A stretch of 64,000 nucleotides of DNA from a virus. Under the pieces are notes generated by a model that worked only from the letters and a program-made list of their open reading frames with translations, ran no database searches and had not been told where the DNA came from. Made by a program: the position numbers and the translations under genes. The stretch lies in the IMG/VR virus record IMGVR_UViG_3300031539_000013. The stretch is one strand, 5' to 3'. Of the stretch, positions 7,612-30,188 are shown piece after piece (the first letter of the stretch is position 1; each line of letters starts with the position of its first letter).

Positions 7612-8310
7612 CTATCCAGTTTTAAGTTTCTGTTCACTATAAGCAACTATCTCTTCAATACGGAGGTTTACCCCAATAAGAGCCATACACATCTTAGTCA
7701 GGGTAAAGTGCTCATCAACGGGATATTCTAGTTCTGTTGAATTAGCAGAGTCATAAGTAATCCCCCCATCAAATTCAGTATAAGCAAATACCGGATCAAT
7801 GGGAAACCTGTAATAATTAAGGTCACATGCGGTTATGGTCACTGGCCTGATATGTATGCCATCGACACGCATCACCCCAATAGGGTTCTGTAATGTCGGT
7901 CTCTTGGTGTAATTGCCTTCCCTCGATGCGAACTCATGCTCCCTTAATATCTCTACTGGCCTTGGTAGTGATGTGGGAGTACCGTTGATTGTCTTTGAGT
8001 AATTATAAGCAAGGGTGTCTCTGTGAGCATAATTATCGGGATATAGCATGACACCTGCCGTCACTGTCCTGTTTGCCAACCGCACCTTAAACGCTTTCAT
8101 ATCATCAGTGTTCTTTAGTGTGATGTCTGCACGTTCATTGGGAATCGGTCTCCCTGGTTGATATTCTTCGGGGATACCATATTTTTGCCGGAACAGGTCA
8201 ATGTTCACAACTTTGATGAGCATCTTAAACCGATCAGGAGTAATGATGTTACCATCATAGTCTTTGTTTACTATGAACTCAATAAGCGTGTATATCTCTC
8301 CCAAATTCAT
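7612..8310 (-). CDS. hypothetical virion protein (232 aa)
   Basis: Track ORF in the structural module. Confidence 0.6.
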   Translation of the reverse strand: MNLGEIYTLIEFIVNKDYDGNIITPDRFKMLIKVVNIDLFRQKYGIPEEYQPGRPIPNERADITLKNTDDMKAFKVRLANRTVTAGVMLYPDNYAHRDTLAYNYSKTINGTPTSLPRPVEILREHEFASREGNYTKRPTLQNPIGVMRVDGIHIRPVTITACDLNYYRFPIDPVFAYTEFDGGITYDSANSTELEYPVDEHFTLTKMCMALIGVNLRIEEIVAYSEQKLKTG

Positions 8311-8453
8311 TCTACGTTCCTCCTATTACAGTCTGTTTTTTATGTTAATCAGTTATTAATAATTATCAAATAAATTAGTATTATACATATAGAAGAAATA
8401 AAGACTGCTTTGTATTCAAAGGTTTTCATTTTTTCTTTTTAGTTGCCATATCT

Positions 8454-9968
8454 TCATACTGCTAATTTAAAAGCTATATTAAAAGCATTAAGTTTTGTGT
8501 TTGCACTTAATCCTGTCTCTCCAATCACTATATCTATCCAACTTATAGGAGGGTCAATCTCTGCATTGAGATTAGCTATATTGGTATTGATTGCATCAAG
8601 TAAATCCTGACCAACCAATTCATCTGTTATTATAGTTATCGAAGCTGCACCTGCAACAAGGCCATTAAGAATAGCAAAATTATCATTCAATGCTTTTAAA
8701 TAGCCCACAGAGCTTAACCCATTTGTTAAACTCAATATTTCACTCTCATAATAAGCAAATCCAAAAAACCCAGTGCCAACCAAACCAGTGCTTCTCCAAA
8801 GTAAATCTCCTGTTGCTACATCAAAACAAGCCACACTCGAATTAGCTGCTTCATGTACTAACAAAACATCTTCTTCTGCTAAATTTGAAACGACCATTGG
8901 AGTTGAATCCCATGCTCCATTTGTAAGATATGTTCTTACTAAAGCAAGTGTTTCAATATCGAAAGCCACAACTGCATCATTCGCACCGGAACGAACTATA
9001 TAAGTTATCCCATCATGAACAACAACTCCCTGCGTTCCCGTATCTGGAAGTTCTGATACAAGAGTAATCGTTTCGTCTAAAGCACTTAAAGCAGCATCAG
9101 GGGCTTGCTGATTATTTAACTGTGTAGTTCCAAATGGACTCCATTCTGTTTTCGTCCCTGTACCAAGTTGCACTACTAAAGCAGTTGTTATATCTACAAC
9201 TGCTGCTGTTATCCATCTTCCATAACTTAGAGCAGGTTGACCACAAGAACCAACTTTTTTGCCTAAAGTATCATACTTCTTTTCTAATGCTCCCGTTGCT
9301 GCATCAAGTATATAAATCTCATAATTCTGAAGAGGATCGTCACCGCCTCCATCTGTTTCTGCAATTATATGACCATTACAATAAACGACTTGCGTTATTG
9401 CCCTGCTGTTTGCCTGATACATAGCCTCTGCATCAACTTCATAAGTCCATTCCACTGAACCATCTGTCACATCATAAGCTATCACCCTACAATCTTCCGC
9501 ATGACCTATGTACCAATCATAATTTTGCTGATAATCATAGGCATCCCCCGTGCCTGTATAAACAAAGCCATCGGCATAAGCAATTACGTTTTTATGATCT
9601 GTATTAAGTCCATTTACCTCCCATACCAAATTAAGATCAGCATCATAAACTTTTATTGCTCCACCATAAGCAATGTTATCCCAATAATGGCAAACAATAA
9701 AATAGCCATATCCATCATTTACAAGTATAGTATTTCCCCATACACTGAATCTGCTTCCCGTAACAGTAACAAAATCCAAAACAGCCCCATTTATAGCATT
9801 AAGTTTATAAAGTTTAAAATATGATTGATAATAAATAAATCCCTGCGCCTGATCAACGGCAGGAGTGCATCCATGTGTTTCCGCAAAATGCCAAAGCTCT
9901 GCACCTGTTTCAAGACTTAAACAATGAAGTCCGTCATCTGCTCTTGTAAGTATGTGTTTCTCAGCCAT
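8454..9968 (-). CDS. PQQ/BamB-like beta-propeller repeat protein; tail-associated by position
   Basis: 504 aa with recurring G(A/D/S)xxW blade motifs (TGAELWHF, LNLVWEVNG, DGSVEWTYEV, TGDLLWRSTG) and a non-repeat C-terminal region of about 100 aa. Confidence 0.6.
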   Translation of the reverse strand: MAEKHILTRADDGLHCLSLETGAELWHFAETHGCTPAVDQAQGFIYYQSYFKLYKLNAINGAVLDFVTVTGSRFSVWGNTILVNDGYGYFIVCHYWDNIAYGGAIKVYDADLNLVWEVNGLNTDHKNVIAYADGFVYTGTGDAYDYQQNYDWYIGHAEDCRVIAYDVTDGSVEWTYEVDAEAMYQANSRAITQVVYCNGHIIAETDGGGDDPLQNYEIYILDAATGALEKKYDTLGKKVGSCGQPALSYGRWITAAVVDITTALVVQLGTGTKTEWSPFGTTQLNNQQAPDAALSALDETITLVSELPDTGTQGVVVHDGITYIVRSGANDAVVAFDIETLALVRTYLTNGAWDSTPMVVSNLAEEDVLLVHEAANSSVACFDVATGDLLWRSTGLVGTGFFGFAYYESEILSLTNGLSSVGYLKALNDNFAILNGLVAGAASITIITDELVGQDLLDAINTNIANLNAEIDPPISWIDIVIGETGLSANTKLNAFNIAFKLAV

Positions 9969-11317
9969 TATAAAGCGTATAAAGCAATTCTCTTAATATA
10001 TCCATCCATCGGATATTTTCCTGTATTTGTCGAACATCCTAACATTAAAGCATAATTGTCATCGGGATAAGTGGCTGCCGCATTAAAATAGATCATTGGT
10101 ATATCCACTCCATCTTTTGTCGCTGTAATTACTATTGTAGTGTAATTTGCAGTAACTTCCATATTAAATTCTTCTCCATAAACATAAAATTCAGGAGTAC
10201 TTAATGCACTTTGTATTGAACTCACCCCGAAAGTATGCGTAAAGTATAAATGCTTTAGATTTCCAGCATCTCCTTCTCTTATTCGGAAAAACCCATTTTC
10301 TTGAAGAGTTCCCTTTTTTATCAATGATGAATTAGTATAGGGTATTTGTGAATCTATCCTACCAACACATTCCACTTTGACAATATTATTATTATTCGGT
10401 AAAGAAGAATTATCACTTATCAAACCACAATAATCACCCCCATCTAAATTAACAGTTCTCCAACGTATTCCATTAACCGTATATTCAGGTCTGGAATCAA
10501 CTCCTGTTATGTAAGCATTAACAGAATTAGCAATCCTTCCGGGGGCTAAGTTATACCACTTAGCAACCACATTCTTATCACCCAAACCGTAATCAACAAC
10601 ATTTATCTTAATACCACATTTCCAATGATACGCATCCCATAGTGATGCAATATTTCCTGTATCAATTAATCTCTGGTATTCAATTTCAAGCGATAATCTT
10701 TTTACTATTACTCCACCATCAGCAAGTACAGCAGTCTGGTAGGTATCAGCATAATCTAATGCTGCTGTACTTATTTCTGGCCATTCTGACTGCGCCCCTG
10801 CACGATTGCCTTTAATAACGCCTCTCTCATCAAGCAACCCTGACCAGAACTGTGAAAGCTCAAAATAAGAGTATAAATTAGTTAATTCTGCCTCTGACAA
10901 AGTAACCCCGCTTTTAAGAATCCCTATAAACCGAATATGATATGGTGTGGAATTATCATACTTAACTATTGTCCTTGAAAAGTCATATCCTACAAGTTCA
11001 CTCACCTCTACATCTCTTACTATCCCATTTCTGTTAAACCACAAATAATCAGTATCATCAGCCTTTAGTGTTTCATTATCGGGTATCTGAAAGGTAGCCT
11101 CTGAAGTATATGGAATATAATCGCCTGAAAAGTCTTTACCAGTAATAGCAATATCATAACCATTAGATGTAATATCTTCAAGGTTATCACCACTTAATCC
11201 TCCAATATAAAAGAAGTCAAATCGTGCCGCCCAGAAACTACTCCACGAAAAGCCTGACCTCAAAGCTGTCCTGAATGGCTCTCTTAGTGGGATGCTATGT
11301 CTCATCTGTGATCTCAT
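9968..11317 (-). CDS. hypothetical tail protein with a LamG/concanavalin-like C terminus
   Basis: 449 aa. The C-terminal ...GKYPMDGYIKRIALYAL resembles the F.G.ID.V.IY..AL ending of LamG-type domains. TAATG overlap at 9968. Confidence 0.55.
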   Translation of the reverse strand: MRSQMRHSIPLREPFRTALRSGFSWSSFWAARFDFFYIGGLSGDNLEDITSNGYDIAITGKDFSGDYIPYTSEATFQIPDNETLKADDTDYLWFNRNGIVRDVEVSELVGYDFSRTIVKYDNSTPYHIRFIGILKSGVTLSEAELTNLYSYFELSQFWSGLLDERGVIKGNRAGAQSEWPEISTAALDYADTYQTAVLADGGVIVKRLSLEIEYQRLIDTGNIASLWDAYHWKCGIKINVVDYGLGDKNVVAKWYNLAPGRIANSVNAYITGVDSRPEYTVNGIRWRTVNLDGGDYCGLISDNSSLPNNNNIVKVECVGRIDSQIPYTNSSLIKKGTLQENGFFRIREGDAGNLKHLYFTHTFGVSSIQSALSTPEFYVYGEEFNMEVTANYTTIVITATKDGVDIPMIYFNAAATYPDDNYALMLGCSTNTGKYPMDGYIKRIALYAL

Positions 11318-11326
11318 AGCAAGGGG

Positions 11327-11863
11327 TTATTGTCTGTATGCGCCAAAAACATCAATCACATATCCTGCGGCAACATTAAGTGCGTAGAGAGTACTTAAAT
11401 CATCAACTTCATAAGCCACGGATTCCCCCGGTGCTAATTCACCACTCCCTGCGGCTAACCCTACTGGCCCAATATAAACATTCCCCGCATTTGTAGAAAG
11501 TGCTTTTATTGTAACATAGCCGGGATAAACATAATTGGCGACATGAGTTTCTACGTCAGGCGTTAGTCTTGCTGAAAAAGGAGTATTAGGATAATCCGAG
11601 TTCGCCTTTAGACTTGACATCAGATACGATAATGCTGGCGCGGTGTGGGAATTGAACTCATAGACAAATTCGAGGGCAGTAGTGTAAGTCACCCCGTTGA
11701 GGGTTGCTCCGGCTACCTTAAATGGAGGACAGATAGTGAGGTCTTTCTGGTTGATGTGACGGATGCCTATGGTGTCTCCTTTGCAATAGGCTTCAAAATC
11801 GAGACTATACCTGTCTGTCCCGTTGATCAAGATGTGCGCATCGGCAATTACTATTGTTATCAT
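11327..11863 (-). CDS. hypothetical virion protein (178 aa); first gene after the terminator
   Basis: Track ORF, preceded by a 138-bp spacer that holds a strong hairpin terminator. Confidence 0.6.
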   Translation of the reverse strand: MITIVIADAHILINGTDRYSLDFEAYCKGDTIGIRHINQKDLTICPPFKVAGATLNGVTYTTALEFVYEFNSHTAPALSYLMSSLKANSDYPNTPFSARLTPDVETHVANYVYPGYVTIKALSTNAGNVYIGPVGLAAGSGELAPGESVAYEVDDLSTLYALNVAAGYVIDVFGAYRQ

Positions 11864-11924
11864 AACGATATGTTTTACTGGTTAACAACAAACGAACTAC
11901 AATAATTTGGAAGTAAAGTTAGAC

Positions 11925-11969
11925 AATAAAAACAAAAAATAAGGGATTCTAATTAAAAAATCCCTTATT
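11925..11969 (-). terminator. rho-independent terminator after the head-gene block
   Basis: Perfect 10-bp inverted repeat AATAAGGGAT (11938-11947) / ATCCCTTATT (11960-11969). On the minus strand it is followed by TTTTTTGTTTTT. Confidence 0.6.
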
Positions 11970-12001
11970 GACATAGTATGGGCAGGATGAAAAAAGAATC
12001 G

Positions 12002-12907
12002 TTATTCGTCAATATTGGTGTCTTGACCACCTTTGCCTGCTTTCGGGTTCTTGGCAAGGAGGGCAGCCATAAGGTCTTTTCTGAACCCCTCATCACCCTT
12101 GTAGATGTCATATAAAACATCATGAGCACTTCGGGTAGGAGGGATATTGCATATATGTTCAGTCTTTCCTTCGGGTGTCTTCCATGCCCACTCCTTCGGT
12201 CCCGAGACAATAAGCCCCATGTCAACAGCCTTTTGTATAGACTCTCTGGCTTTCAACTCCTCATCGGCATTGACCATATCAAAGAACTTCTCAGGTCCAT
12301 CCTTTGACTTGTGTACTTTGCCATCAAGGATAATCCTCACCTGGGAAATCGTTAGATCATCAACACCCCTCACAAAATAGGCTTTTGCTACCAGACGGAG
12401 TCTTTCTTCCGATAAGCCCGTCTCTTTGTTATAAAGGAGTGTAGCAAGTTTATTATCAGTTTCTCTCTTTTCAGCCTTCTTTTCAGCTTCAGAGACAAGG
12501 TCTTCGAAGACAAACTTAACTCTCCTGCCCTCATTATCCCCCTCCTGACAAAAAGAAGATTTTCTCAAAAGGAAAAATATCAGTTCAATATCGGTGCGTT
12601 CCAGATACCGAGCACCATTATACCTGAATTTTTTAGGAAGGTACTGTTTCCTTCCAAGGTCATCCGCTACTACCTGTTCTGCATATCTCCATACCTCGAC
12701 ACCATCGTTTGTCTTAACGGTTCCCTTTAGATCAAAAGAGATAGAGTTAGGTTTATCGGGGAGGACGTTGTGTTTCAGTCGGCTTTTTACAATACGTTCT
12801 GAGGGATACACAACTTTAACAGGGAATTTGCCGTGAAAATGCTTCTCAATTGAAGCTACATCTGCTTTACTTAGCCTGATAGGCCCGTCATCATTCTTGT
12901 ATAACAT
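12002..12907 (-). CDS. hypothetical protein (301 aa) immediately downstream of the capsid gene
   Basis: Track ORF. Lys/Glu-rich central segment. A head-associated role is inferred from position only. Confidence 0.55.
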   Translation of the reverse strand: MLYKNDDGPIRLSKADVASIEKHFHGKFPVKVVYPSERIVKSRLKHNVLPDKPNSISFDLKGTVKTNDGVEVWRYAEQVVADDLGRKQYLPKKFRYNGARYLERTDIELIFFLLRKSSFCQEGDNEGRRVKFVFEDLVSEAEKKAEKRETDNKLATLLYNKETGLSEERLRLVAKAYFVRGVDDLTISQVRIILDGKVHKSKDGPEKFFDMVNADEELKARESIQKAVDMGLIVSGPKEWAWKTPEGKTEHICNIPPTRSAHDVLYDIYKGDEGFRKDLMAALLAKNPKAGKGGQDTNIDE

Positions 12908-15701: not shown

Positions 15702-17990
15702 TTATGCTGATACTGATGCCTCACTTTTTACTGTCTCTGACACAATCCCAAGGGTGCTCTCTAATTGAAGCAGTGATTTCTTCCTTACTAGTTCTTTCTC
15801 TGCAAATTCATTATCAATCTCTTTCTTAGCCTTATAAAGCCTTATCCCCTCATTTGTTTTGTTCTTTTCTTCTGCAATAGCGTTCTTCGATTTTTGCTCA
15901 TTTCCCTTTTGTTCTCTTTCGGCATCAAGCCTCATGTTTTCTCTTTGTAGGGTAAGTTGCTTTTCTTTATTCTTTTTGCTCTTATAGTTGAGGTATGCTT
16001 CTGCATATTTTAGGTTCCCACTCTCGAGAAGTCTTTCTATCATCAGAAAATCGGGTAATTCGATACCAATAATACCATCTCTGTCGGGGTTCATGGCTTT
16101 GATTGCAGCCTCTTTAATAGCTTCTTTCCTCTTATCGGTAGGTTTAGCCTCGTATTTGATGTAATAATCAGCATCAACAACATCTGCACCTACACTTATC
16201 ACCTGCACTCCTATCCTGCCTATTACTGGCATATATCCCTTGTATGCCTCTTTATTATGCTTTATAAGCAGTTGTAGCCTGAGTGATATATTCTTTGCTG
16301 TCCTCTCTTTGAGGTTAAGATAGGCACTATAAATCGGTCTGAGAGCATTGTTTGTTGCGGCCATGGCTATCTCTGATCCTCCTACTGACTGTTCTGGGTT
16401 GGGGTCTGATGCATCTGCGATCTTATTTATCCCTGTGAGCTCCCTGATAGCATTGGTGTTGAACTCAAATAGTGTGATGAACTCGCTCAATTGACTTCCT
16501 AATCCCCCCTCTAGTTCCTGTATTGGACGTGACGTTGCGGTGTTTGGGTTCCCTACATGGGTTGTGGCTTTCCAGATAAGATTACCTGTCTGTGTCCTTA
16601 TTTTAAGAAGTTCCAATGGTTGCATTTTATTTTTCCCAATAGTCATATTACTGAGAGAAGTAAACTCAATGGCAATACCTGGAGGTGCTGCCATAGCAAT
16701 GGCATTTTGTAGTTTATAGAAGGCGAGTGCCATCTGGTCAAGGTGATTCTCCGAAAGGCTTACAAGTGACCTATAAGGCAGTTTATAGAGATGATATGAC
16801 AATTCAACTTCTTTCTTCCCCGGTCTTGGCACATCATATTGCAGTCCGAAGTCATAAGTATAGTCAGTGCCTATTATCCACTTGCATTTATAAACAACTT
16901 TGATGTCGTATTTATCTGTCTTCTTACTGTCAGAGTTGTGAACCTTCCCCCATTTCTCTTCATATAGTAATTTAGAACCATATTTTGTAGTGCGGCTAGT
17001 CATATACCTGCTGTTTACTGACATCCACTCAGCATCCATGACATCTACAAGGAACCCATCGTAATTACCTATCTGTGTCTGTTCGTTATAAGTAAATTCA
17101 TTAAGTGCCACGTTACCACCACTACCATTATAGCTTCTTGCAAGTTCCAGCAACACCGATTCTTCAATCTCCGGATTAAGTTTACGGAGGTCTGAGATAA
17201 GCACCTGTATAATCTCACCTCCATATTCCATGTTTTTATGATCCCAATGTTTTGAATATTGACCTACGAATACGGCAGGGTCAACATATCTTGCTCTTAC
17301 CTTTGAGGTGTATGGGTCAACATAGTCTTTCGTCCCTGCACAGTTTATGACACAAAAATCCCTGATAATCTTCTTCTTAATCTCTTTCCATGCTGATATG
17401 TAGAATGTGTAGTCTAGTCCCTGCTCTATCTCCGTCTCTTTTGCCAACTTAAACCCTCCTGCTCCCTCATATAGATTCAACTCCTCCATCGTCTCGGGAA
17501 CATACTCATTTGATCTGTCAACACCAAGCCCCTGTTCGATGTACTGTATGGCTTCCCTGTACTTCATGCGATATTCCATGTCTAACTTGGCATCTTCCCT
17601 CTCATCGGTGCTAGAGGGGTCAACGGCTGTGGCTATCACCTGATGATCGGTTTGCTCCATCATGCCTTCCACCACACGAAGGAATTTAGGCATAACAGAA
17701 TACACCTCCCAACTGATGTTCATATATCCGGTGAGGTCTGAACCATCTTCGCTTGCATCTAAGAGTATTTTTTGATATTTGAGGGGGCTCTGCCGGCCAT
17801 CGGCAAGAGCTCTGAGGGCTTGTATCTCTGCTACCTGACTGTATGGGATGGCTGTCCTGCCTGATTTCCATCGGGCATACATGGCTTCACACCACTTCTT
17901 ACCCCACTCTTCGGTCTTGTCCTTTGGATTTATCTGATCTCTTGGGAAGGGGTAGTTCCCAGAACCGTATTTTACAAGCGATAATGCCAT
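15702..17990 (-). CDS. portal protein (candidate)
   Basis: 762 aa, begins 27 nt downstream of terL. Size and synteny are typical of a portal. Confidence 0.7.
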   Translation of the reverse strand: MALSLVKYGSGNYPFPRDQINPKDKTEEWGKKWCEAMYARWKSGRTAIPYSQVAEIQALRALADGRQSPLKYQKILLDASEDGSDLTGYMNISWEVYSVMPKFLRVVEGMMEQTDHQVIATAVDPSSTDEREDAKLDMEYRMKYREAIQYIEQGLGVDRSNEYVPETMEELNLYEGAGGFKLAKETEIEQGLDYTFYISAWKEIKKKIIRDFCVINCAGTKDYVDPYTSKVRARYVDPAVFVGQYSKHWDHKNMEYGGEIIQVLISDLRKLNPEIEESVLLELARSYNGSGGNVALNEFTYNEQTQIGNYDGFLVDVMDAEWMSVNSRYMTSRTTKYGSKLLYEEKWGKVHNSDSKKTDKYDIKVVYKCKWIIGTDYTYDFGLQYDVPRPGKKEVELSYHLYKLPYRSLVSLSENHLDQMALAFYKLQNAIAMAAPPGIAIEFTSLSNMTIGKNKMQPLELLKIRTQTGNLIWKATTHVGNPNTATSRPIQELEGGLGSQLSEFITLFEFNTNAIRELTGINKIADASDPNPEQSVGGSEIAMAATNNALRPIYSAYLNLKERTAKNISLRLQLLIKHNKEAYKGYMPVIGRIGVQVISVGADVVDADYYIKYEAKPTDKRKEAIKEAAIKAMNPDRDGIIGIELPDFLMIERLLESGNLKYAEAYLNYKSKKNKEKQLTLQRENMRLDAEREQKGNEQKSKNAIAEEKNKTNEGIRLYKAKKEIDNEFAEKELVRKKSLLQLESTLGIVSETVKSEASVSA

Positions 17991-18017: not shown

Positions 18018-20261
18018 CTAATTTCTTATTGGACTATATGTACGCCTGCGTAGAAAATCATCAAGCACAAATTCTTGTTCATTGAGTTTCTGCACGGTGT
18101 CATATATGCCACGAGTGCCAAGTAGCGCATATCCTCCGGCAGTAAATAAGTCATAATTAGTCATATCCTCCGGCCCATCAATATCCCTGCACTCCTCCAA
18201 TACTTCAATGTGCGTCTCTTCGTCAGCCTCGTTCTCTATCCATGTCATGTACTCTGTGAAGATGTCCTGTTTAACCTTATTAGCTGTCTCTCCCGGGGTG
18301 TTGTTGATACGCATGGTTTTCGGGTCTATACGGTAAAGCAAAAACCCTCCATATCCTCTCTCATCAAAATAATCCCAGAGGAAAGGATAGTCTATCTCAG
18401 GGAACATAGGCACACCAAAATAGAGGCACATCATAAGCATATCTTCTCCATAGATATCTTTATCAAAAGTCCTCTGAGCATATATGCAGACAAATTTACG
18501 CTTCATACGGAAGTCACCATCCCTTAGTTGCCCTTTGCGGATGACTGCTCCTCCTCCCTTTGATTTGCGATTGCCCTCTGTCTTGTTAAACTTAAATGGG
18601 TCGCCTCCTGCTACTCCCCAATATGAGTTACCAGGCTTCCATAGCCCCTCATCATCACTCCATACCTTCTTATTGGATTCCGAGTCGTTAAGCTGATGAC
18701 TTACCTTAAACTTACCCTGTGGATTTTCAACAAAGATCACCTTTGAGTCTCTTATATTTTCTTTCCATACAAAGTTCCCCGTTACTATCGCCTGTTTGGA
18801 GAAGGTCAGTTCGTCAATATAGTTCTCCAATTTGTTCATGTTAAACCCTGATGATTTCGCTGCTGTGCGGAAACACTCTGCAAACCGGATAGGGTAAAGC
18901 CTGATGTTCTCTGATAACGCTTCCTGATCTTCTGCATCAATATATCCTTTTCTGGTGTTGAGCAAAAATTCCCTTGCTCCTATGTCTCTTTTTATGTACT
19001 CGGACTGCTGTTGTGTCGGGGTGTCGATGACACTCATCCCATATTCATCAATAAAACCCTGTAACCCATCATAGGCGGGAATGAAAAGCACTGCTAATCC
19101 TGATCGTGTTTGTCCATTGGGGTTGCGCTCGTAATAATCGCTCATCTTACACTGATGCTTAAAGGCACGTCCTCCTCCTTTCTCCATCTCCCCTACCGTG
19201 GATGTTTTGATGGTATAACCTACAATGTCACCTCCCATTACAAGACATTCCTTTACTACGGTGTGCCTGTCCCAACAGGAGAGTCCTTTTTTCAGCTTCC
19301 CTACCTCATCGTCATGATGGAAGTACAACTTATCACCGTCATAGGCAGATGGATCGGCTATCTCATAGTTAATACCCGATTCAAGCCCTAGGTCAGATGT
19401 TGACAATGACCCCTTTGAAGAGAGCCTTTTTGCCGGAGGAGAGAAGGATAGTTCTGTCTTGGGAGATGTTGAGCCTTCATAGTTAGGCTTAAAGAAGAAC
19501 GGCAGTTTTTTCCATGGTGCTACGAGGTGTCTCAGGAAACATTTGCGGGACTGCGTATCATTCATGGACTGAATGCCACCGAAAGCACCCATTGTCCTGC
19601 TTATGATCTCGTAACTGATGCATTCAGCCTTATATGTAGCACCCTCCCTTCTGTGCTTGGGGTAGTTGAAGCCAAAGAACACCCTTCGAGCAAAATCAAT
19701 AAATTCATACTCACCCTTTGCGTTCCTGGTAGCAATGCCCTTCTGGTTACATCGTGGAGAAATAGTCTCGGTAAATATTTTTCGTGCAAAGAGAAAGAAT
19801 CGCCTGTCCCTATCCCTGTACTTTGGCAGTCCGACATCAATGCTCCACCATCCGCAATAGAAATAATGCCATCCATCAATGTATGTAGGCACACCGTTGT
19901 TGTAAAACCAGTATCCGTTAAGCCTCCTGTCCCATTGTGTCCTGATAAAAGCTATTTCTTCTTCGTAGATGTCCTGATGTGCTTCAAGAGCCTCCCATAT
20001 CTCATCAAGGGTCTCATACCTTGAATGTAGTTCTTTTATCCTTTTGGGTAGCCTCGGGGGATGCCACTTCTGTTCCCGGGCAGGCAGTCCAAAATTATCT
20101 ACTAAGTGTGGCTCTGGAGGCACGGGGAGGGCTATCTCTATCGGGATAAGGTCTTTGTCGTCAATGTTCACCCATACACTCTTTTGAGCATCCTCGTATT
20201 GTGATAATATCTGAGGATCAACTTCTCTGTGGTACCGTTTTAATAGGGCTAAATGATTCAT
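18018..20261 (-). CDS. terL: terminase large subunit
   Basis: Walker-A-like KHRREGATYK, Walker-B-like LYFHHDDE and nuclease-like VAGGDPF. The track start at 20309 is a TTG overlapping the upstream gene. I prefer ATG 20261 (MNHLALLKRY...), 10 nt after the upstream stop. Confidence 0.8.
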   Translation of the reverse strand: MNHLALLKRYHREVDPQILSQYEDAQKSVWVNIDDKDLIPIEIALPVPPEPHLVDNFGLPAREQKWHPPRLPKRIKELHSRYETLDEIWEALEAHQDIYEEEIAFIRTQWDRRLNGYWFYNNGVPTYIDGWHYFYCGWWSIDVGLPKYRDRDRRFFLFARKIFTETISPRCNQKGIATRNAKGEYEFIDFARRVFFGFNYPKHRREGATYKAECISYEIISRTMGAFGGIQSMNDTQSRKCFLRHLVAPWKKLPFFFKPNYEGSTSPKTELSFSPPAKRLSSKGSLSTSDLGLESGINYEIADPSAYDGDKLYFHHDDEVGKLKKGLSCWDRHTVVKECLVMGGDIVGYTIKTSTVGEMEKGGGRAFKHQCKMSDYYERNPNGQTRSGLAVLFIPAYDGLQGFIDEYGMSVIDTPTQQQSEYIKRDIGAREFLLNTRKGYIDAEDQEALSENIRLYPIRFAECFRTAAKSSGFNMNKLENYIDELTFSKQAIVTGNFVWKENIRDSKVIFVENPQGKFKVSHQLNDSESNKKVWSDDEGLWKPGNSYWGVAGGDPFKFNKTEGNRKSKGGGAVIRKGQLRDGDFRMKRKFVCIYAQRTFDKDIYGEDMLMMCLYFGVPMFPEIDYPFLWDYFDERGYGGFLLYRIDPKTMRINNTPGETANKVKQDIFTEYMTWIENEADEETHIEVLEECRDIDGPEDMTNYDLFTAGGYALLGTRGIYDTVQKLNEQEFVLDDFLRRRTYSPIRN

Positions 20262-20271
20262 ATTCCCCCAA

Positions 20272-20871
20272 TTAATTATGCACGAAAAGCGGCTTCGGTA
20301 TATGAACAATTCTTAGCCTTCTTCGTCTGCAATAATTTGCACAATCTTCTGCATATCTCCCATCTGCGGATAGATGTATATGATTAAACCCGACCCTTCT
20401 AGCCACATCCAACTTCACAATGAATGAACCCATATCAATATGATTTTCTTTTACCTCAGAAATAAATAAATTATATTTCTCATAAGAATGCACGGTGTTG
20501 CAATAAACAAATCCCACAAATTCATTCCTGCACTCATTCATAAAAATTCTTATAAAATCAGGAACATAATAATTATCATCATTCGTAATAAGAACATAGT
20601 CCCTGTGGTTTAATGATAATTGTTTTAAAGCTATTTTTCGATTTGGATGCCCCCACGCTCCATTTACTGTTGGTGTTTCATAATATTGTATGCGAGCATC
20701 ATCATACGAATCTATAACATCTTTAACTTCTTTTGGCGCGGGTCCATCATGAATAATATGAATCTGCCATTGTGGACAGCTTTGTATTAAAATACAATCA
20801 ATCATAATTCTTAATGGCACTGCACGTTGATACGCGGCAATTATAATATGAAGGATACGAGGACGTATCAT
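20272..20871 (-). CDS. glycosyltransferase (GT-A fold)
   Basis: N-terminal ILHIIIAAYQR... strand and ITNDDNYY acidic (DxD-type) motif. ATGA overlap with the upstream glycosyltransferase. Confidence 0.6.
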   Translation of the reverse strand: MIRPRILHIIIAAYQRAVPLRIMIDCILIQSCPQWQIHIIHDGPAPKEVKDVIDSYDDARIQYYETPTVNGAWGHPNRKIALKQLSLNHRDYVLITNDDNYYVPDFIRIFMNECRNEFVGFVYCNTVHSYEKYNLFISEVKENHIDMGSFIVKLDVARRVGFNHIHLSADGRYAEDCANYCRRRRLRIVHIPKPLFVHN

Positions 20872-21569
20872 ATTACTTTTATTAATCGTGTATTTGCATT
20901 TTTAAAATCATCATCAAAATCTTCCGGTGTCCTGCCCATGTGCCAACCCCAATTATTAGCAATATTCTCCTCGCTCTGTCTGCAATGTAACTCCTCATAC
21001 CTATCTATAACATAATTTAAAGATAGATATTTAAAGTGCATAGCTATAATACCGGATTTAACATCCAAAATATATTCTCCCTCCGGTCTGGCAAAATGAC
21101 AGCCTGGCTCATAATTAATATTTTTTATCTTATCTGGACGAAATAAAAACATCTTACTCCTGAGTTCTATCCCCATATTAACCTCATCATAGATTTGTCC
21201 CTGAGTGGTAGGAAATACATTAGAAAACATTTCAAACATGAAGGGCAGGATAACTGTCCCCTTAGACCGTTCAAGGGCAAGTTCTAATCTTTTGTGATAA
21301 ACTATCTCATCCACGTCAGCGACAATAACCCAATCTGCACCCGACTCTTTCCAGCAATCATTCTTTAAATTTATAAGGATGTCTTCTCTATATTTACCAT
21401 CAGTATTAAATTCTATAATATTCGCTCCAAATTGCTTTGCTATATTTACAGAATTATCTGTTGATCGGTTATCAAAGACAGTAACACTCCCATATTGGGA
21501 ATAATGCCTGAGAAAATAAGGTAACATTTTTTCTTCGTTGTAACAAAATGTAAAGGTTTCTATTTTCAT
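20868..21569 (-). CDS. glycosyltransferase family 2-like (paralog A)
   Basis: FCYNEEKMLPYFLRHYSQYG..VFDNRSTDNS...VADVDE. 233 aa. ATGA overlaps at both ends. Confidence 0.65.
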   Translation of the reverse strand: MKIETFTFCYNEEKMLPYFLRHYSQYGSVTVFDNRSTDNSVNIAKQFGANIIEFNTDGKYREDILINLKNDCWKESGADWVIVADVDEIVYHKRLELALERSKGTVILPFMFEMFSNVFPTTQGQIYDEVNMGIELRSKMFLFRPDKIKNINYEPGCHFARPEGEYILDVKSGIIAMHFKYLSLNYVIDRYEELHCRQSEENIANNWGWHMGRTPEDFDDDFKNANTRLIKVI

Positions 21570-22267
21570 ATCCTTGGTATTACAATTTTAATTAATCTAT
21601 CAAAATCCGCACCTACCTGCTCTGGTGTTCGCAATAAGTGGGTGCCAAGTTTTAAGTCTCTGTTCTGTTGACTCATCCTTGCTCCTGAGTTTACAGTTCT
21701 ATCAATCGTATATTCCCTACCGAGATGCTTCATGTGAAGTGTTTTTATTGGGCCTTTCCTCTCAATGACTACGTTACCCTGTGGTATTGCCAGATGACAT
21801 CCTGGGATATAATTCATCTCAGTTATTTGATCGGGACGAATAAGATTCATCTTAGGCCATGTCTCATGTCCAAGTTTCACCTCATCATAGATTTGCCCCT
21901 GAGTGGTAGGGAAGTGATCAATAAACATATCGAACATATCTGGCTCAATGACTGTGGCTTGAATTTTCCCTAGATGTGCTATCAGATCAGGACAATAAAT
22001 AAACTCATCCATGTCTATGACAATACACCAATCTGCCTTCGATCCTCGCCAGCAATGTTCTTTTATCTGGAGATTAGTCATGTCGTCAAACTGACCACAA
22101 GTGTCGAACAGTCTTATTTCGGCCCCTTCTGATTGCGCTATCTCTACTGAATGATCAGTGGAGTAATTGTCATAAACGATAATCTTCCCATACTGAGAAT
22201 AATGTCTCAGGAAATACGGAAGAATCTTTTCTTCGTTATAACAGACCGCATAGACCTCTATTCTCAT
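21566..22267 (-). CDS. glycosyltransferase family 2-like (paralog B)
   Basis: VCYNEEKILPYFLRHYSQYG..VYDNYSTDHS...VIDMDE. Same 233-aa length and roughly half the residues identical to paralog A by eye. Confidence 0.65.
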   Translation of the reverse strand: MRIEVYAVCYNEEKILPYFLRHYSQYGKIIVYDNYSTDHSVEIAQSEGAEIRLFDTCGQFDDMTNLQIKEHCWRGSKADWCIVIDMDEFIYCPDLIAHLGKIQATVIEPDMFDMFIDHFPTTQGQIYDEVKLGHETWPKMNLIRPDQITEMNYIPGCHLAIPQGNVVIERKGPIKTLHMKHLGREYTIDRTVNSGARMSQQNRDLKLGTHLLRTPEQVGADFDRLIKIVIPRI

Positions 22268-22358: not shown

Positions 22359-22871
22359 TCATGTCATATTTATTAATGAGAGCCAAAATCCTTTCTCCAT
22401 TATTTCCTGATAATATGGTATCAATCCAAGGTGTTTCACATCATTCCATGTTATTTCACATGAAGGCCAAGTCTCTTGACTCTTAAATTTATCTTTGTTA
22501 TAAAAATAATCGTGCGCCATAATTACACAGTCCTTCTTTAGATGAGGGGCAAGAGACTGTACTTCTTTTATCTTATTCCCATTATCACAAAGTATTAACG
22601 TCCGTGGTTTAATCAGGTTTATGATAAAACCCATATTCAAGAAAATATCCATCTGGCAAAAAATCATGTTCCACGGGAGATATTCTGTCTTTATATCCCG
22701 TCTCTGATCGAAAGTTATGAAGTCGAAATTATTATCTATTTCTTTTCTCAGATCATAAATGATATTCGTAAGCCGTCCCGTCATCGTGCCAAGTTCGATT
22801 ATTCTATCAGGGATCATTGCAATCTTGAAATACTCCCAAAATATATCCTCTATTGTTGATATTTGTAACAT
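22359..22871 (-). CDS. class I SAM-dependent methyltransferase (candidate sugar methyltransferase)
   Basis: IIELGTMTG resembles SAM-binding motif I. Start moved from the track's 22922 to ATG 22871, which makes a TAATG junction with the upstream gene. Confidence 0.5.
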   Translation of the reverse strand: MLQISTIEDIFWEYFKIAMIPDRIIELGTMTGRLTNIIYDLRKEIDNNFDFITFDQRRDIKTEYLPWNMIFCQMDIFLNMGFIINLIKPRTLILCDNGNKIKEVQSLAPHLKKDCVIMAHDYFYNKDKFKSQETWPSCEITWNDVKHLGLIPYYQEIMEKGFWLSLINMT

Positions 22872-23539
22872 TACTTCTGTCCTGTATTCCAAGTTGTAGC
22901 CTGATCTCCGGTATGTACACAATAGTCATCTGGCAATACTGCCGCCCTATAACCACGTCTGAAATATTCCTCCCCGATTTTGCATTCTCTTAATGCTAGA
23001 AAATCATCTTTAGTTGACCATTGCGCCCAGGGTGCTATCTCTTTATAAACCCGCATACTCCTTATCCCTGGATGAAAAGTAAAACCATGCCAGAGATTAT
23101 CCATTCCAGCAATAGAAGCATATCTATATTCAACTCCCCCCGTTATTTGTACCTCTGAATCGACAGGTTGATTATGGATGTTTGATATCCATGTCTGCAT
23201 CACTAAATGATTATTATTAACTGGTAGTAGAGCAAGTTCAATAAATCCTGGCTTAATAAACTCCCAATCATCCTCTGTATGAAATACAAAGGGTGTTTTA
23301 ACCATTGAATAGGCTCTATCGATACTATCAATTAATCCCATATTTACCCCATTGAGCAAAAGAGTATAATTAGGATAGAGATCACAAAGTACTTTATGCA
23401 TCTCTTTATTTGCAGAATCTTCTACAATGATAAATTCTTCAATAGGATAGGTATTCATTGCATTAAAACTCTCGATAGTTCTTTTAAGAAGTTCTATCCT
23501 ATTACATGATGTTAATACTACGCTTACTGTTGATTCCAT
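22871..23539 (-). CDS. glycosyltransferase family 2
   Basis: VSVVLTSCNRIELLKRTIESF...EFIIVEDS, the classic GT2 N terminus plus an acidic motif. Confidence 0.65.
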   Translation of the reverse strand: MESTVSVVLTSCNRIELLKRTIESFNAMNTYPIEEFIIVEDSANKEMHKVLCDLYPNYTLLLNGVNMGLIDSIDRAYSMVKTPFVFHTEDDWEFIKPGFIELALLPVNNNHLVMQTWISNIHNQPVDSEVQITGGVEYRYASIAGMDNLWHGFTFHPGIRSMRVYKEIAPWAQWSTKDDFLALRECKIGEEYFRRGYRAAVLPDDYCVHTGDQATTWNTGQK

Positions 23540-24297
23540 ATTCTATTTTTTTTACAAAATTTTATAATATTATCATCATAAATGGTACACTTTTCATTGA
23601 TTGCATCAAACCATGATAATGGACGTGGAGGTGTATTTGGATTACCTGTTCCTCTGGCAACTTTCTTTAGCCATTCCTCATGGGATTTCGTGAAATAATG
23701 ATTAACTCTACATATTTGATTCGGAGAATCAGTAACCGGCCCCTGAAATGGTGCTTTCGCTTCGTTAACAGCAGTTCGGGTATATTCTCCTCTATGTGGG
23801 TCAGAGATTCCTGTGCAATACTGAGTATTGATAATAGATTTTATCCACATTCGTTCATCAGGTTCTCTCCATACATAATTATCAGTAACCTTCCCTTCTG
23901 GTTTTGTTTCATGTCCTGAACTACCAAAGGTTGTCCACGGTAAGCCAAGTGATCCAAATTCTTCATAATCCTTCAATAACTTCTTAATGTCTTTGTGTTG
24001 AAGCAGAACAATAAACTCATCCACATCAACCATCGCCATCCAATATGCCGGATGACTTTTAAGTGTATCCTGATTGAGATAAGTAGGTAAAAATAATGAA
24101 TCCCTATCTATCCTGATGACAGAAACCTTATCTCCCCAGATATTATGAACTGGAATGATGCTACGATGATCATACATCACAATATGCTCAAATCCTATGG
24201 CAAGGTGATATTTTACCCATTCGTCCAAATAGTCGCCATCGTCTCGGACGTAAGTGCTAATTATTGCGTAATATCTCATCCTGATATTGTTTTTCAA
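23524..24297 (-). CDS. GT-A glycosyltransferase (GT92/DUF23-like)
   Basis: YAIISTYVRDDGDYLDEWVKYHLAIGFEHIVMYDHRS ... MVDVDEF. Confidence 0.55.
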   Translation of the reverse strand: MKNNIRMRYYAIISTYVRDDGDYLDEWVKYHLAIGFEHIVMYDHRSIIPVHNIWGDKVSVIRIDRDSLFLPTYLNQDTLKSHPAYWMAMVDVDEFIVLLQHKDIKKLLKDYEEFGSLGLPWTTFGSSGHETKPEGKVTDNYVWREPDERMWIKSIINTQYCTGISDPHRGEYTRTAVNEAKAPFQGPVTDSPNQICRVNHYFTKSHEEWLKKVARGTGNPNTPPRPLSWFDAINEKCTIYDDNIIKFCKKNRIWNQQ

Positions 24298-24820
24298 GTT
24301 CGATTATTCCTTTATTTCTTTCTTTAATAAACCATAATGGGTTTCCTCCCCATATCTCCCATGAAGGAATACTTCTTTTTACAAAACTCATTGCCCCTAT
24401 CGCTGCACCTTCATTAATCTCGAGTCCTTGCATGATGACTGTGCCGGAACCTATCTGCACAAATTTTCTCAAATACACTGGTGCTCCAATAACGTGAGTG
24501 TATTTATCAGGTGTCATAGGACTTATCATAAAGTCTCCTCCAAAATCATCCGTTGCACTGAATATAGTACATCTGGGTGACAGCCCGGTGTAATCCTCCA
24601 TTGTAATACCATACTTGCCATATAGACCGCAATATGCTCCGATATGAATATTCTTTCCAAGCGTTATGCTTCCTGATAGCACACAGAAATCATCAATACG
24701 CACATTATTGCCTATTGATATGTCTGTTCCATAAATAGAACACTTATCGGAAATTAATATATTTTCCCCAACTGATTTTAATCCAAGACTACTTACTTCA
24801 TCTTTTGTTAGAAATCCCAT
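24257..24820 (-). CDS. hexapeptide-repeat (left-handed beta-helix) acetyltransferase, PglD/WbbJ-like
   Basis: Imperfect hexapeptide repeats (ISIGNNVRIDDFCVLSGSITLGKNIHIGAYCGL...; IGSGTVIMQGLEINEGAAIGAMSFV). Confidence 0.7.
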   Translation of the reverse strand: MGFLTKDEVSSLGLKSVGENILISDKCSIYGTDISIGNNVRIDDFCVLSGSITLGKNIHIGAYCGLYGKYGITMEDYTGLSPRCTIFSATDDFGGDFMISPMTPDKYTHVIGAPVYLRKFVQIGSGTVIMQGLEINEGAAIGAMSFVKRSIPSWEIWGGNPLWFIKERNKGIIELEKQYQDEILRNN

Positions 24821-25439
24821 CTGTATATATTTTAAATTTACTTAAATCTGGATATGGCAATTCAATATCTGGCATGTCTTTTTTTGTCCCGTCTAAGTTA
24901 TAAAATTGTTGGATTAAAAGTAGTCCAAATTCTGCTATTATTGGATTCATATAAAAATTCCATCCAAGTTGTGTAAAATTATCTTCGTGATAATCACATT
25001 CATTTCTTCCACTAAATCTTGCTTTTTTAAACCATTCGTAAGCATCTTTATTGTCTGTGAGAATACACCCTCCCTTCCCAAGTTTTAAATGTTTATAAGG
25101 GCCCGTGAAGGAGCAACACATAAATGTATCTGGCCTATACATATTAGCCGTGAACCTTAATGCAGAATCCCATACCCGTGTACTCATTAACCAATAAGCT
25201 CCCTTAATTGTCTTATGGGGTACTTGATAGAATAAAACCTCCCCCCCTGCATGAATTATCTCACATGGCACGCTCATATATGTTCTACATGGAATCCCTA
25301 CTTTCTTTCCTTTGATATTGTCATACGTTAAGGCAAGGAATAAAGCATTGCTCTCATTGTCCACGCAAGCACAATACGGAGCACCAGTATAGTCTGCTAT
25401 TCTTTCTTCAAAAGCCTTAGTTACATCATGAGGTTTCAT
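24798..25439 (-). CDS. DegT/DnrJ/EryC1/StrS-like PLP aminotransferase, unusually short (213 aa)
   Basis: FEERIADYTGAPYCACVDNESNALFLAL...GIPCRTYMSVPCEIIHAGGEVLF and SFTGPYKHLKLGKGGCILTD (candidate PLP lysine), in the usual order but compressed. Confidence 0.5.
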   Translation of the reverse strand: MKPHDVTKAFEERIADYTGAPYCACVDNESNALFLALTYDNIKGKKVGIPCRTYMSVPCEIIHAGGEVLFYQVPHKTIKGAYWLMSTRVWDSALRFTANMYRPDTFMCCSFTGPYKHLKLGKGGCILTDNKDAYEWFKKARFSGRNECDYHEDNFTQLGWNFYMNPIIAEFGLLLIQQFYNLDGTKKDMPDIELPYPDLSKFKIYTDGISNKR

Positions 25440-26218
25440 TGGAATATATAATTCAAATCATCACTAATGCAATCCTCTGATGAGGTGCTTTCATCCCTGA
25501 ACTCATGCAATCGTTCTCCTTCACGAAGTCCCGTTAGCCTTATTAAAGTATCGATATTCCCATATCGCTTGGCAAATTCATTTGCAATATCAATCATCCT
25601 GAATGACTTCATCTGTATGATTCTTATACCAACCTCATCTTTGCTCTCCCAGATGTAATTAATAAGTTCTTGGGGATGTATGAAAAAGCGAGTCATCTTA
25701 TCTGATGTAAGGTTAATGCAATTGCTCTTGTTGATCTGTTCTTTCCATATAGGTAGAACTGAGCCTGTTGACCAAAGGACATTGCCTGATCGGATACTTA
25801 AAAATCCAGCTTTCGTTACCATGTCTTCAGCCAGTGATTTTGTCTTGCCATACACATTGTCGGGATTAATGGCTTTGTCAGAACTCATATTAACCAGTTT
25901 AACACTATGATGTAAGCAGGCATATACTACATTCATTGTGCCAACTACATTATCCCTGGCAGCCTCCATTGGTTGTTGTTCGCAAATATTAACATGCTTT
26001 AGTGCCGCAAAATGAAAGACATAATCCATGCCTTTACAAGCATTAAGAATAGCGGGATAATTACAAATATCACCAATCACATAGTTATACTTCGGATGTT
26101 TCGCTTTCATCCTTACCTGTTGTGCTTCATTACGTGAAAAAATGGTTACATTTTCACCTACTCTCTCGGCTAGCTTACTGCCGATAAATCCTGTTCCTCC
26201 TGTTATAAGTACTTTCAT
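25436..26218 (-). CDS. UDP-sugar 4,6-dehydratase/epimerase of the CapD/PseB/PglF (Polysacc_synt_2) type
   Basis: ITGGTGFIGS (Rossmann), FHFAALKHVNICEQQPMEAARDNVVGTMNV, SSDKAINPDNVYGKTKSLAE (YxxxK), IRSGNVLWSTGSVLPIWKEQI, LTSDKMTRFF. Confidence 0.8.
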   Translation of the reverse strand: MKVLITGGTGFIGSKLAERVGENVTIFSRNEAQQVRMKAKHPKYNYVIGDICNYPAILNACKGMDYVFHFAALKHVNICEQQPMEAARDNVVGTMNVVYACLHHSVKLVNMSSDKAINPDNVYGKTKSLAEDMVTKAGFLSIRSGNVLWSTGSVLPIWKEQINKSNCINLTSDKMTRFFIHPQELINYIWESKDEVGIRIIQMKSFRMIDIANEFAKRYGNIDTLIRLTGLREGERLHEFRDESTSSEDCISDDLNYIFQ

Positions 26219-26850
26219 TTTAGTTGGTTTTTATATTCAATTAAAAAAACATCGCGTCCTGGTTCTACAAATTCCTTAGAATATGCTTTTCTGTCCTTAC
26301 ACATACATATCCACTGCTCTGCTGCAAATCTATCATTTTTATCTAGGGTGTCAATCTTTGGTAATCGGTAGATATAATCCCTCCTAAACCACCAGAAGTT
26401 ACCTGAGAAATGGTCTGGTGACTTACAGAAATTTACCGATGACACATCATAGCCTGTCGATACACGGTCATAATGCTCTCTCCAACGATTAATTACGCTT
26501 TCGTTGATCCATGCCCTCCAATGATTTATTATCGTCTCAAACGGTCTCGTTATAGACTTGGTGTGGAAATAGAAGCCTACGTGTGGTGTGATGTCTGCCT
26601 CAATCAGTTTTAATGTAGGGAACTCATACTCCATGGGGTTCTCGGAGAAATATTTGATTTTTAGTTTCGGATAAAGATTGACTACCACCTTTTCAAGTAA
26701 TGCCTTTTCTGCGGGAGACCCTATACACCCGATGCTTATCTCATCACAGGCATCGTAAAGCCCTGATGTCAATAAAATTCGCATCTGATCTGTAATTACG
26801 GAATAGTAATGATTTACCATATAAATGTGCCAATAGCCGAGAATTTTCAT
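26215..26850 (-). CDS. hypothetical protein (211 aa) in the glycan cluster
   Basis: Track ORF with ATGA overlaps at both ends. HFSGNFWWF motif. Function unknown. Confidence 0.55.
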   Translation of the reverse strand: MKILGYWHIYMVNHYYSVITDQMRILLTSGLYDACDEISIGCIGSPAEKALLEKVVVNLYPKLKIKYFSENPMEYEFPTLKLIEADITPHVGFYFHTKSITRPFETIINHWRAWINESVINRWREHYDRVSTGYDVSSVNFCKSPDHFSGNFWWFRRDYIYRLPKIDTLDKNDRFAAEQWICMCKDRKAYSKEFVEPGRDVFLIEYKNQLK

Positions 26851-30049: not shown

Positions 30050-30069
30050 TTATTATAGTTTTAAATCTA

Positions 30070-30102
30070 CAAATGCAAAACCTCCCCAACTCAGTAGGGA
30101 GG
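30070..30102 (-). terminator. rho-independent terminator after the radical-SAM gene
   Basis: CCTCCC (30081-30086) / GGGAGG (30097-30102) stem, followed on the minus strand by TTTTGCATTTG. A second 7-bp hairpin TTGGCTA/TAGCCAA lies at 30128-30148. Confidence 0.5.
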
Positions 30103-30188
30103 TCGCTACATTAAACAAGAAAAGCATTTGGCTATCGGCATTAGCCAACAACAAAGATAGACAATATTTGCTTCCTGTTCTCATTTTT

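Follow-up and report, generated by a model that had tools for sequence, protein, structure and literature searches.

Virus-encoded pathways to 4-amino sugars have been described in giant viruses. Mimivirus R141, L136 and L142 make Vio4NAc for the viral fibrils, the predicted product of Moumouvirus australiensis Ma467, Ma465 and Ma466 is di-N-acetylbacillosamine, and short dehydratases occur in giant viruses (Ma467, 278 amino acids (aa); Mm422, 279 aa) (PMC9614988). Among solved bacterial enzymes is AntD of Bacillus cereus (structure 3vbn), which serves as N-acyltransferase in the biosynthesis of D-anthrose (PMC6031040), and anthrose biosynthesis involves 3-hydroxy-3-methylbutyryl-CoA (PMC8141488). 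Here, a trio of this kind was analysed in a phage contig, a stretch of 64,000 nucleotides (nt) from IMG/VR virus record IMGVR_UViG_3300031539_000013 (hereafter the window). Three overlapping genes on its minus strand, at 24257-26218, encode a trimmed N-acetylhexosamine (HexNAc) 4,6-dehydratase, a miniature aminotransferase of the DegT family (mini-DegT) and a left-handed beta-helix N-acyltransferase. Together they probably form a phage-encoded nucleotide-sugar branch that makes a UDP-2-acetamido-4-acylamido-2,4,6-trideoxyhexose, with the resulting glycan likely carried by virion proteins.

The genes are transcribed in the order dehydratase, aminotransferase, acyltransferase and overlap by 4 nt and 23 nt in the list of open reading frames (ORFs). 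The first (25436..26218; P0002) encodes a PseB/Pen-like UDP-HexNAc 4,6-dehydratase of the Polysacc_synt_2 type with 260 aa, assigned by Pfam PF02719, matches in the PDB and an AlphaFold2 model. The second (24798..25439; P0001) encodes the 213-aa mini-DegT, a predicted sugar aminotransferase dependent on pyridoxal 5'-phosphate (PLP), assigned by Pfam PF01041, an AlphaFold2 model and residue conservation, and the third (24257..24820; P0003) a predicted AntD-like N-acyltransferase of 187 aa, assigned by Hexapep and PDB 3vbi-3vbp. An earlier, sequence-only reading of this DNA had proposed that a 4,6-dehydratase, a C4 aminotransferase and an N-acyltransferase follow one another in reaction order, and the ORFs and Pfam matches bear out both the enzyme logic and the gene order. 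The same reading had described the whole trio as miniaturised. This holds strongly for the aminotransferase and moderately for the dehydratase, but the acyltransferase is of normal size (187 aa, compared with 205 aa in the AntD chain).

The mini-DegT matches PF01041 (DegT_DnrJ_EryC1) with 52.2 bits against a cutoff of 19.8 (E 7.1e-14) and covers the 360-position profile only in parts, namely positions 26-97 and a second stretch. Its scores lie far below the NCBIfam equivalog cutoffs (29.9 bits versus 423.5 for PseC; 33.4 bits versus 420 for LegC), and the sole aminotransferase family in PHROGs v4, which is full-length, matches residues 6-73 weakly. The N-terminal motif quoted in the sequence-only reading is there (F10 E11 .. 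I14 A15. Y17. G19). The lysine motif is also present, although its spacing had been given slightly wrongly, since four residues separate SF from the lysine (SF-TGPY-K116-HLKL-GKGG). The wider family has the canonical SFxxxK, with three residues, and a one-residue insertion precedes the lysine in the clade of the window. In a profile search of PDB entries, K116 falls on the lysine that is replaced in the K186A variant of GDP-perosamine synthase 3bn1, and P0001 is predicted from its motifs to have both the Schiff-base lysine after SF and the aspartate to the PLP ring nitrogen that define the DegT family. Across 102 aligned sequences, reaching down to 33% identity, P50, S110, K116 and G124 are invariant and D91, T53, E11 and Y82 nearly so (K116 and S110 in 102/102 sequences, D91 in 101/102). 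Position 30 is Thr or Ser, position 54 Tyr or Phe and position 161 Asn or His.

The AlphaFold2 model built from this alignment has a predicted local distance difference test score (pLDDT) of 96.5 and a predicted template modelling score (pTM) of 0.92. Seven core strands (22-26, 46-50, 67-71, 77-83, 89-94, 106-110 and 124-128) and six helices are seen. Only sugar aminotransferases appear among its top structural matches in Foldseek and VIA-align, with Z 18-20 and a root-mean-square deviation (rmsd) of ~2.9 over ~198 of 213 residues when compared with DegT enzymes, and the match spans chain residues ~29 to ~325 in enzymes of ~365 residues. Superposed in this way, the 213-aa model retains the PLP-binding core, which the sequence-only reading had considered might be lacking, and K116, D91 and S110 are kept. 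The two-domain architecture of DegT enzymes of ~350-400 aa, in which a large PLP domain is joined by a small one formed from the N-terminal segment and the C-terminal region, is absent, only the seven-stranded core and a short tail being present. An hhalign comparison with the full-length 399-aa DegT of phage immuto locates the losses at the N-terminus (~30 residues), on either side of core strand 4 (one helix following strand 3 and another preceding strand 5) and past the last large-domain helix, where the small domain would be. According to the VIA-align ranges, the conserved C-terminal tail LPYPDL superposes on a late small-domain segment. A split partner that would supply the lost small domain was also considered; no second DegT match was found in the cluster genes of the window or among the families listed for 223 neighbours (positions 1-2 on either side), and the idea is not supported. 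The short lengths are real, because hidden exons or frameshifts have no room and homologue lengths are equal.

The mini-DegT belongs to a very large family of at least 8000 protein clusters with lengths of ~205-230 aa. Of 8000 candidates scored in a search of 5.8 billion proteins, 7996 were significant matches, which is a lower bound for the family, and the best 120 matches to P0001 are all 204-231 aa long with 67-85% identity. When 1.84 billion representatives at 50% identity were searched without restriction on length, 926 matches were obtained, of which 374 reach 1e-10 or better. The top 150 of these 926 (to ~35% identity) are almost all proteins of ~200-260 aa, fragments, or fusions with the whole module. 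IMG/VR contains at least 598 pattern matches, 561 of them confirmed, on contigs of up to 348 kb. A scan of 185,579 species genomes, which reaches close relatives (at least 59% identity), found only 23 loci, all on contigs of metagenome-assembled genomes from scattered phyla, as expected of mis-binned phage DNA. Phages are essentially the only carriers of the family. Among cultured phages it is present in the Flavobacterium immuto phages, whose 214-aa copy is 62% identical to P0001, and a Synechococcus phage carries a distant copy. In Flavobacterium phage immuto (MW353175), the mini-DegT gene (8000-8644, 214 aa) and the gene for the full-length 399-aa DegT (11154-12353) lie in one glycan cluster, and both carry the same annotation, WecE-type transaminase.

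Among 57 unique loci, the mini-DegT is 64-74% identical to the window copy, and most of the neighbouring genes are unrecognisable by tblastn. In 286 unsaturated pairwise comparisons, the ratio of nonsynonymous to synonymous substitution rates (dN/dS) is 0.14 at the median and 0.28 at most, so the mini-DegT is under purifying selection. Of the two options offered by the sequence-only reading, a minimal functional version or a degraded relic, the first stands: the gene is a minimal, selected form. A relic or inactive pseudoenzyme would fit a length of ~55-60% of the usual one and the partial Pfam match, but it is already contradicted by the conservation data and is hardly credible in view of thousands of homologues of the same length, the low dN/dS, the high pLDDT, the Z of ~20 and a PLP site in which Lys, Ser and Asp are invariant.

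The dehydratase matches PF02719 (Polysacc_synt_2) with 195.9 bits (1.1e-57) and carries GGTGFIGS at residue 7, SSDKA at 112-116, YGKTK at 123-127 and MTRFF at 175. D114, K115, Y123 and K127 do not vary across 74 sequences, among them full-length Bacillus-group enzymes, and both the profile and the catalytic D-K / Y-x-x-x-K residues assign P0002 to Polysacc_synt_2. By sequence, the solved structures that match it best are WbjB/FnlA-like 4j2o (1e-38), Pen 6bwc (1.9e-37) and FlaA1/PseB 2gn4 (1e-36), with PglF giving a partial match at 2e-24. The AlphaFold2 model (pLDDT 96.1) superposes in VIA-align on Pen with Z 34.4 and rmsd 1.3 over 259 aa, and on the inverting dehydratase 2gn4 with Z 33.8. Because the latter superposition spans the chain up to residue 331, the 60-80 residues missing from P0002 appear in the model to be trimmed loops and surface elements rather than a lost domain. 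The closest homologues form a metagenomic clade of 253-292 aa with 42-75% identity, and several of them probably share contigs with mini-DegT homologues, as the contigs agree in length. When positions in PglF are set from the variant names T395V, D396N/K397A and M405Y, its Met405 falls at Tyr123 of P0002, nine residues after D114, so that the catalytic set of P0002 is PseB/Pen-like. The bit scores point the same way (130-136 for PseB, Pen and FnlA, compared with 89 for the partial match to PglF).

The acyltransferase matches Hexapep (6.8e-12), and no match to the PglD_N N-terminal domain (PF17836) was found in the Pfam scan. It reaches 48.7 bits for NeuD/PglB/VioB TIGR03570, on its C-terminal 52 residues only, compared with a cutoff of 160.8. 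Its match to PDB 3vbi-3vbp runs over the full length (E 6.6e-48, ~50% identity, residues 3-179 to 21-199 of 205), and P0003 conserves both the DDF loop and the Ser that is altered in the 3vbk variant. Since P0003 is AntD-like and has no PglD N-domain, there is no reason to expect a PglD-type catalytic His, and acyl groups other than acetyl are possible. Kubiak and Holden reportedly found in 2012 that AntD itself transfers a 3-hydroxy-3-methylbutyryl group, and its acceptor is said to be dTDP-4-amino-4,6-dideoxyglucose, which is without a 2-acetamido group. No AntA-like acyl-CoA enzyme was found in the cluster of the window.

These comparisons do not sustain the specific PglF/PglE/PglD orthology put forward in the sequence-only reading. 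That the three proteins are strict orthologues of this set and make UDP-N,N'-diacetylbacillosamine is unlikely, even though the same three enzyme classes occur in the same order and PglF matches the dehydratase model at Z 29. The substrate of AntD reportedly has a D-gluco C4 amine, as has bacillosamine. Moreover, a giant virus is predicted to make this very sugar with a 278-aa dehydratase (PMC9614988). Nevertheless, the Tyr at the Met405 position, the closer relationship to PseB, Pen and FnlA/CapE, an acyltransferase without PglD_N that falls below the NeuD/PglB/VioB cutoff, and AntD rather than PglD as its closest solved relative all speak against it. The trio is a hybrid, composed of a trimmed PseB/Pen-like dehydratase, a phage-specific mini-DegT and an AntD-like acyltransferase.

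In the pathway that we propose, P0002 would oxidise and dehydrate UDP-N-acetylglucosamine (UDP-GlcNAc) to UDP-2-acetamido-2,6-dideoxy-hexos-4-ulose. P0001 would move an amino group, presumably from glutamate, to C4 by means of PLP on Lys116, with the ring nitrogen to Asp91 and the phosphate to Ser110 and Ser/Thr30, and P0003, with an acyl-CoA as donor, would acylate the C4 amine. A bacillosamine-type sugar or its L-altro isomer would result; the scheme allows for either stereochemistry at C4 and C5 and for different acyl groups. The enzyme activities, the substrate, the product and the acceptor are given here as we infer them. A rather unlikely alternative is that the trio starts from UDP- or dTDP-glucose instead of UDP-GlcNAc and makes a viosamine/anthrose-like 4-acylamido-4,6-dideoxyhexose. 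The ~50% identity of the acyltransferase to AntD would agree with such a product, as would the probable sugar O-methyltransferase in the cluster, anthrose and Mimivirus Vio4NAc being 2-O-methylated (PMC9614988), and the mini-DegT has no fixed link to HexNAc, since elsewhere it adjoins GDP-mannose 4,6-dehydratases or other short-chain dehydrogenase/reductase (SDR) types. However, P0002 lies in Polysacc_synt_2, and its nearest solved relatives with a substrate in the title (2gn4, 5bjv and 4tqg) act on UDP-GlcNAc.

The pathway that we prefer also has to face several points that weigh against it. The substrate of AntD fits a UDP-GlcNAc-derived sugar only loosely, and the best NCBIfam match of the dehydratase, PseB TIGR03589, reaches 167.3 bits, below the cutoff of 407.75. 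In the mini-DegT, the usual O3'-binding Gln/His (DxAQ motif) is Leu, Lys or Arg, and the protein lacks ~30 residues at the N-terminus together with most of the small domain. In full-length enzymes these DegT parts help to bind the nucleotide, so the substrate range of the mini-DegT is uncertain. The most syntenic relative (L006:5201-7366) shares its terminase (75% identity), its dehydratase and its mini-DegT with the window but lacks a beta-helix acyltransferase; the gene right after its mini-DegT encodes a glycosyltransferase, and the amine may stay free or be acylated elsewhere. Finally, it is gene position that suggests the acceptor, whether virion, host surface or other.

The gene neighbourhoods of the mini-DegT in other phages help to separate its constant partners from its variable ones. 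A hexapeptide-repeat (beta-helix) acyltransferase is found within two genes of the mini-DegT in 45 of the 57 unique loci and within 6 kb in 51 of them. Pfam confirmed Hexapep in 26 immediately downstream genes, 11 of which have PglD_N, and further copies occur at other neighbour positions. ATP-grasp ligase genes adjoin the mini-DegT in two loci, and in one representative (P0201) it is fused to a GNAT acetyltransferase. On account of the adjacent beta-helix acyltransferases, the GNAT fusion and the ATP-grasp neighbours, the amine produced by P0001 would presumably then be acylated. An SDR dehydratase, by comparison, lies within 6 kb in only 13/57 loci, and its kind varies (Polysacc_synt_2, GDP-mannose 4,6-dehydratase and others). 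Since acylating genes are common and dehydratases are not, the conserved unit is the aminotransferase with an N-acylating enzyme; the supply of the keto sugar is variable and probably often drawn from the host pool. The other neighbours include FkbM and CmcI methyltransferases, glycosyltransferases of families GT1, GT2, GT10 and GT11, and occasionally the acyl-CoA enzymes MaoC and BKACE. Two genes away from the mini-DegT, some phages encode PhyH dioxygenases (5), BKACE (4), MaoC dehydratases (2), DnaJ (4) and collagen-repeat proteins (2); these genes are hints of unusual acyl groups and of glycosylated collagen-like fibres. HNH endonuclease domains, one of them with AP2, are fused to, or called with, the N-terminus of the mini-DegT in P0169 and P0136, which suggests that homing endonucleases have inserted beside this highly conserved gene.

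A GT1-FkbM methyltransferase-mini-DegT fusion of ~866 aa (e.g., P0124, 866 aa) accounts for more than 70 protein clusters (P0396-P0470), some of them from contigs above 280 kb (jumbo phages). This fusion, the loss of the N-terminal segment and most of the small domain, and the lack of a dehydratase within 6 kb in 44/57 loci could mean that the mini-DegT aminates a keto sugar that is already on a glycan or protein, or that it works only in complex with a glycosyltransferase. We consider this improbable, because host pools of NDP-4-keto-6-deoxy sugars could account for the absent dehydratases, the examined flanks extend over only 6 kb, and in the window the dehydratase gene overlaps that of the mini-DegT. 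To our knowledge, no aminotransferase acting at the glycan level has been described. A bolder version holds that the mini-DegT is the smallest working fold-type I PLP aminotransferase and acts in a new mode, aminating a glycan after its transfer or docked to a glycosyltransferase. This idea draws on the shedding of the parts that grip the nucleotide and on the hint of docking in the GT1-FkbM-mini-DegT fusion, and we regard it as quite doubtful. Amination of a nucleotide-linked keto sugar, as in the pathway proposed above, is the reading followed here.

Downstream of the trio, the cluster of the window continues on the minus strand with genes suited to glycan assembly. The interval between the trio and the terminase gene is filled by five small GT-A glycosyltransferases and the probable CmcI-like O-methyltransferase. 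A GT-A glycosyltransferase of 257 aa (23524..24297; Glyco_tranf_2_4 1.8e-11, Glyco_transf_92 1.4e-7) comes first, followed by a GT2 glycosyltransferase of 222 aa (22871..23539; Glycos_transf_2 8.1e-9), relatives of which are present in 43/57 mini-DegT loci. The probable sugar O-methyltransferase (22359..22922), CmcI or rhamnosyl O-methyltransferase-like, has no Pfam match; its nearest clusters in the Atlas are RMNT_CmcI, FtsJ or Methyltransf_24 with scores of 0.94-0.97, which serve as a lead only, and in other loci RMNT_CmcI genes repeatedly lie at a distance of two genes from the mini-DegT. As listed, its ORF begins at TTG, and the database record of the same protein begins at Met, residue 18, which is probably the true start; with a start there, the 52-nt overlap with the GT2 gene upstream would largely disappear. 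The interval 20272..22267 holds genes for three more small glycosyltransferases of GT2 type (233, 233 and 199 aa), recognised by Pfam, and the two 233-aa GT2_4 proteins (20868-22267) are tandem paralogues with 49% identity (BLASTP 2e-79). The last glycosyltransferase gene is overlapped by that of the large terminase (18018..20309, minus strand; phrog_6681 2.9e-75, phrog_6547 7.6e-67), and the portal gene (15702-17990) follows. No lipid-carrier, flippase or polymerase genes were recognised in the stretch examined.

The five soluble GT-A enzymes and the probable O-methyltransferase would build a short glycan on an intracellular acceptor. Because the cluster runs unbroken into the terminase, portal and capsid genes and contains many soluble GT-A enzymes, virion proteins are the most likely acceptor. 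Directly upstream of the dehydratase gene lies a gene for a 211-aa DUF8361-like viral protein (26215..26850, minus strand). It has no match in the local Pfam copy, and its nearest Atlas clusters are DUF8361 (score 0.98) and mostly viral. Relatives occur within 6 kb of the mini-DegT in 29/57 loci; the protein is possibly glycosyltransferase-like and may be another part of the glycan cassette. A D12-type methyltransferase-like gene is also located upstream of the trio. A terminator-like site (30079-30104) and a promoter-like site (30052-30079) both precede the gene chain. The sigma-70 promoter scan does not rise above background (58 found versus 50.7 expected); it tells little, and would tell still less if the host belongs to Bacteroidota.

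Literature searches found no paper that describes a DegT family of ~210 aa, in phages or otherwise. The mini-DegT combines a known fold and a known chemistry with drastic reduction, restriction to phages and very high abundance. Current database labels, either WecE-type full enzymes or AHBA synthase, hide the family. Its gene is among the best conserved in many otherwise unrelated aquatic phages, jumbo phages included, and marks phage glycan cassettes. Amino-sugar glycans made by phages, probably for virions, may therefore be much more widespread than the small number of studied cases implies. If active, an enzyme of ~210 residues that consists of the PLP core only would define a minimal sugar aminotransferase, offer a compact scaffold for biocatalytic amination and show, as a natural experiment, what the fold can do without.

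Compared with known systems, each member of the trio joins conserved features with distinct ones. The mini-DegT shares with the DegT/DnrJ/EryC1/StrS enzymes (3bn1; PseC 2fnu; 1o61, a C. jejuni aminotransferase that we take to be PglE; WecE 4piw; and Mimivirus L136) a fold-type I PLP core with a seven-stranded sheet, the Schiff-base Lys, the Asp to the ring nitrogen and the Ser/Thr to the phosphate, the FE..A.Y.G and G.N..M motifs, and a genomic pairing with dehydratases and N-acyltransferases. It differs from them in its length (~205-215 aa versus ~350-400 aa), the absent N-terminal segment, the deletion of the two helices that flank the fourth core strand, the replaced O3'-binding Gln/His, a small domain cut to a tail of ~30 residues (LPYPDL) and its essentially phage-confined distribution. 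Like PseB/FlaA1 (2gn4) and Pen (6bwc), the soluble 4,6-dehydratases that act on UDP-GlcNAc in the pseudaminic acid pathways, P0002 is a Polysacc_synt_2 protein with the TGGTG NAD(P) motif, S-D-K, YxxxK and MTRF, and it superposes on them at Z 34 and rmsd 1.3-1.4 over the whole model. However, it has 260 aa rather than ~325-345 aa, by trimming of loops and surface, and it is followed by a mini-DegT and a beta-helix acyltransferase, and not by PseC and the GNAT enzyme PseH. P0003 resembles AntD (3vbi-3vbp) along its full length at ~50% identity and, like it, is a beta-helix without a PglD-type N-domain, but it is phage-encoded and its partner dehydratase points to a 2-acetamido sugar. The giant-virus trios match that of the window in having a virus-encoded dehydratase, aminotransferase and acetyltransferase that feed virion glycans, and in the short Ma467. 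They differ in their eukaryotic-virus setting and their full-length aminotransferases (352 and 384 aa), in place of which the phage has a mini-DegT. The fibril glycans of giant viruses are the nearest documented parallel to the virion glycosylation proposed here for the phage.

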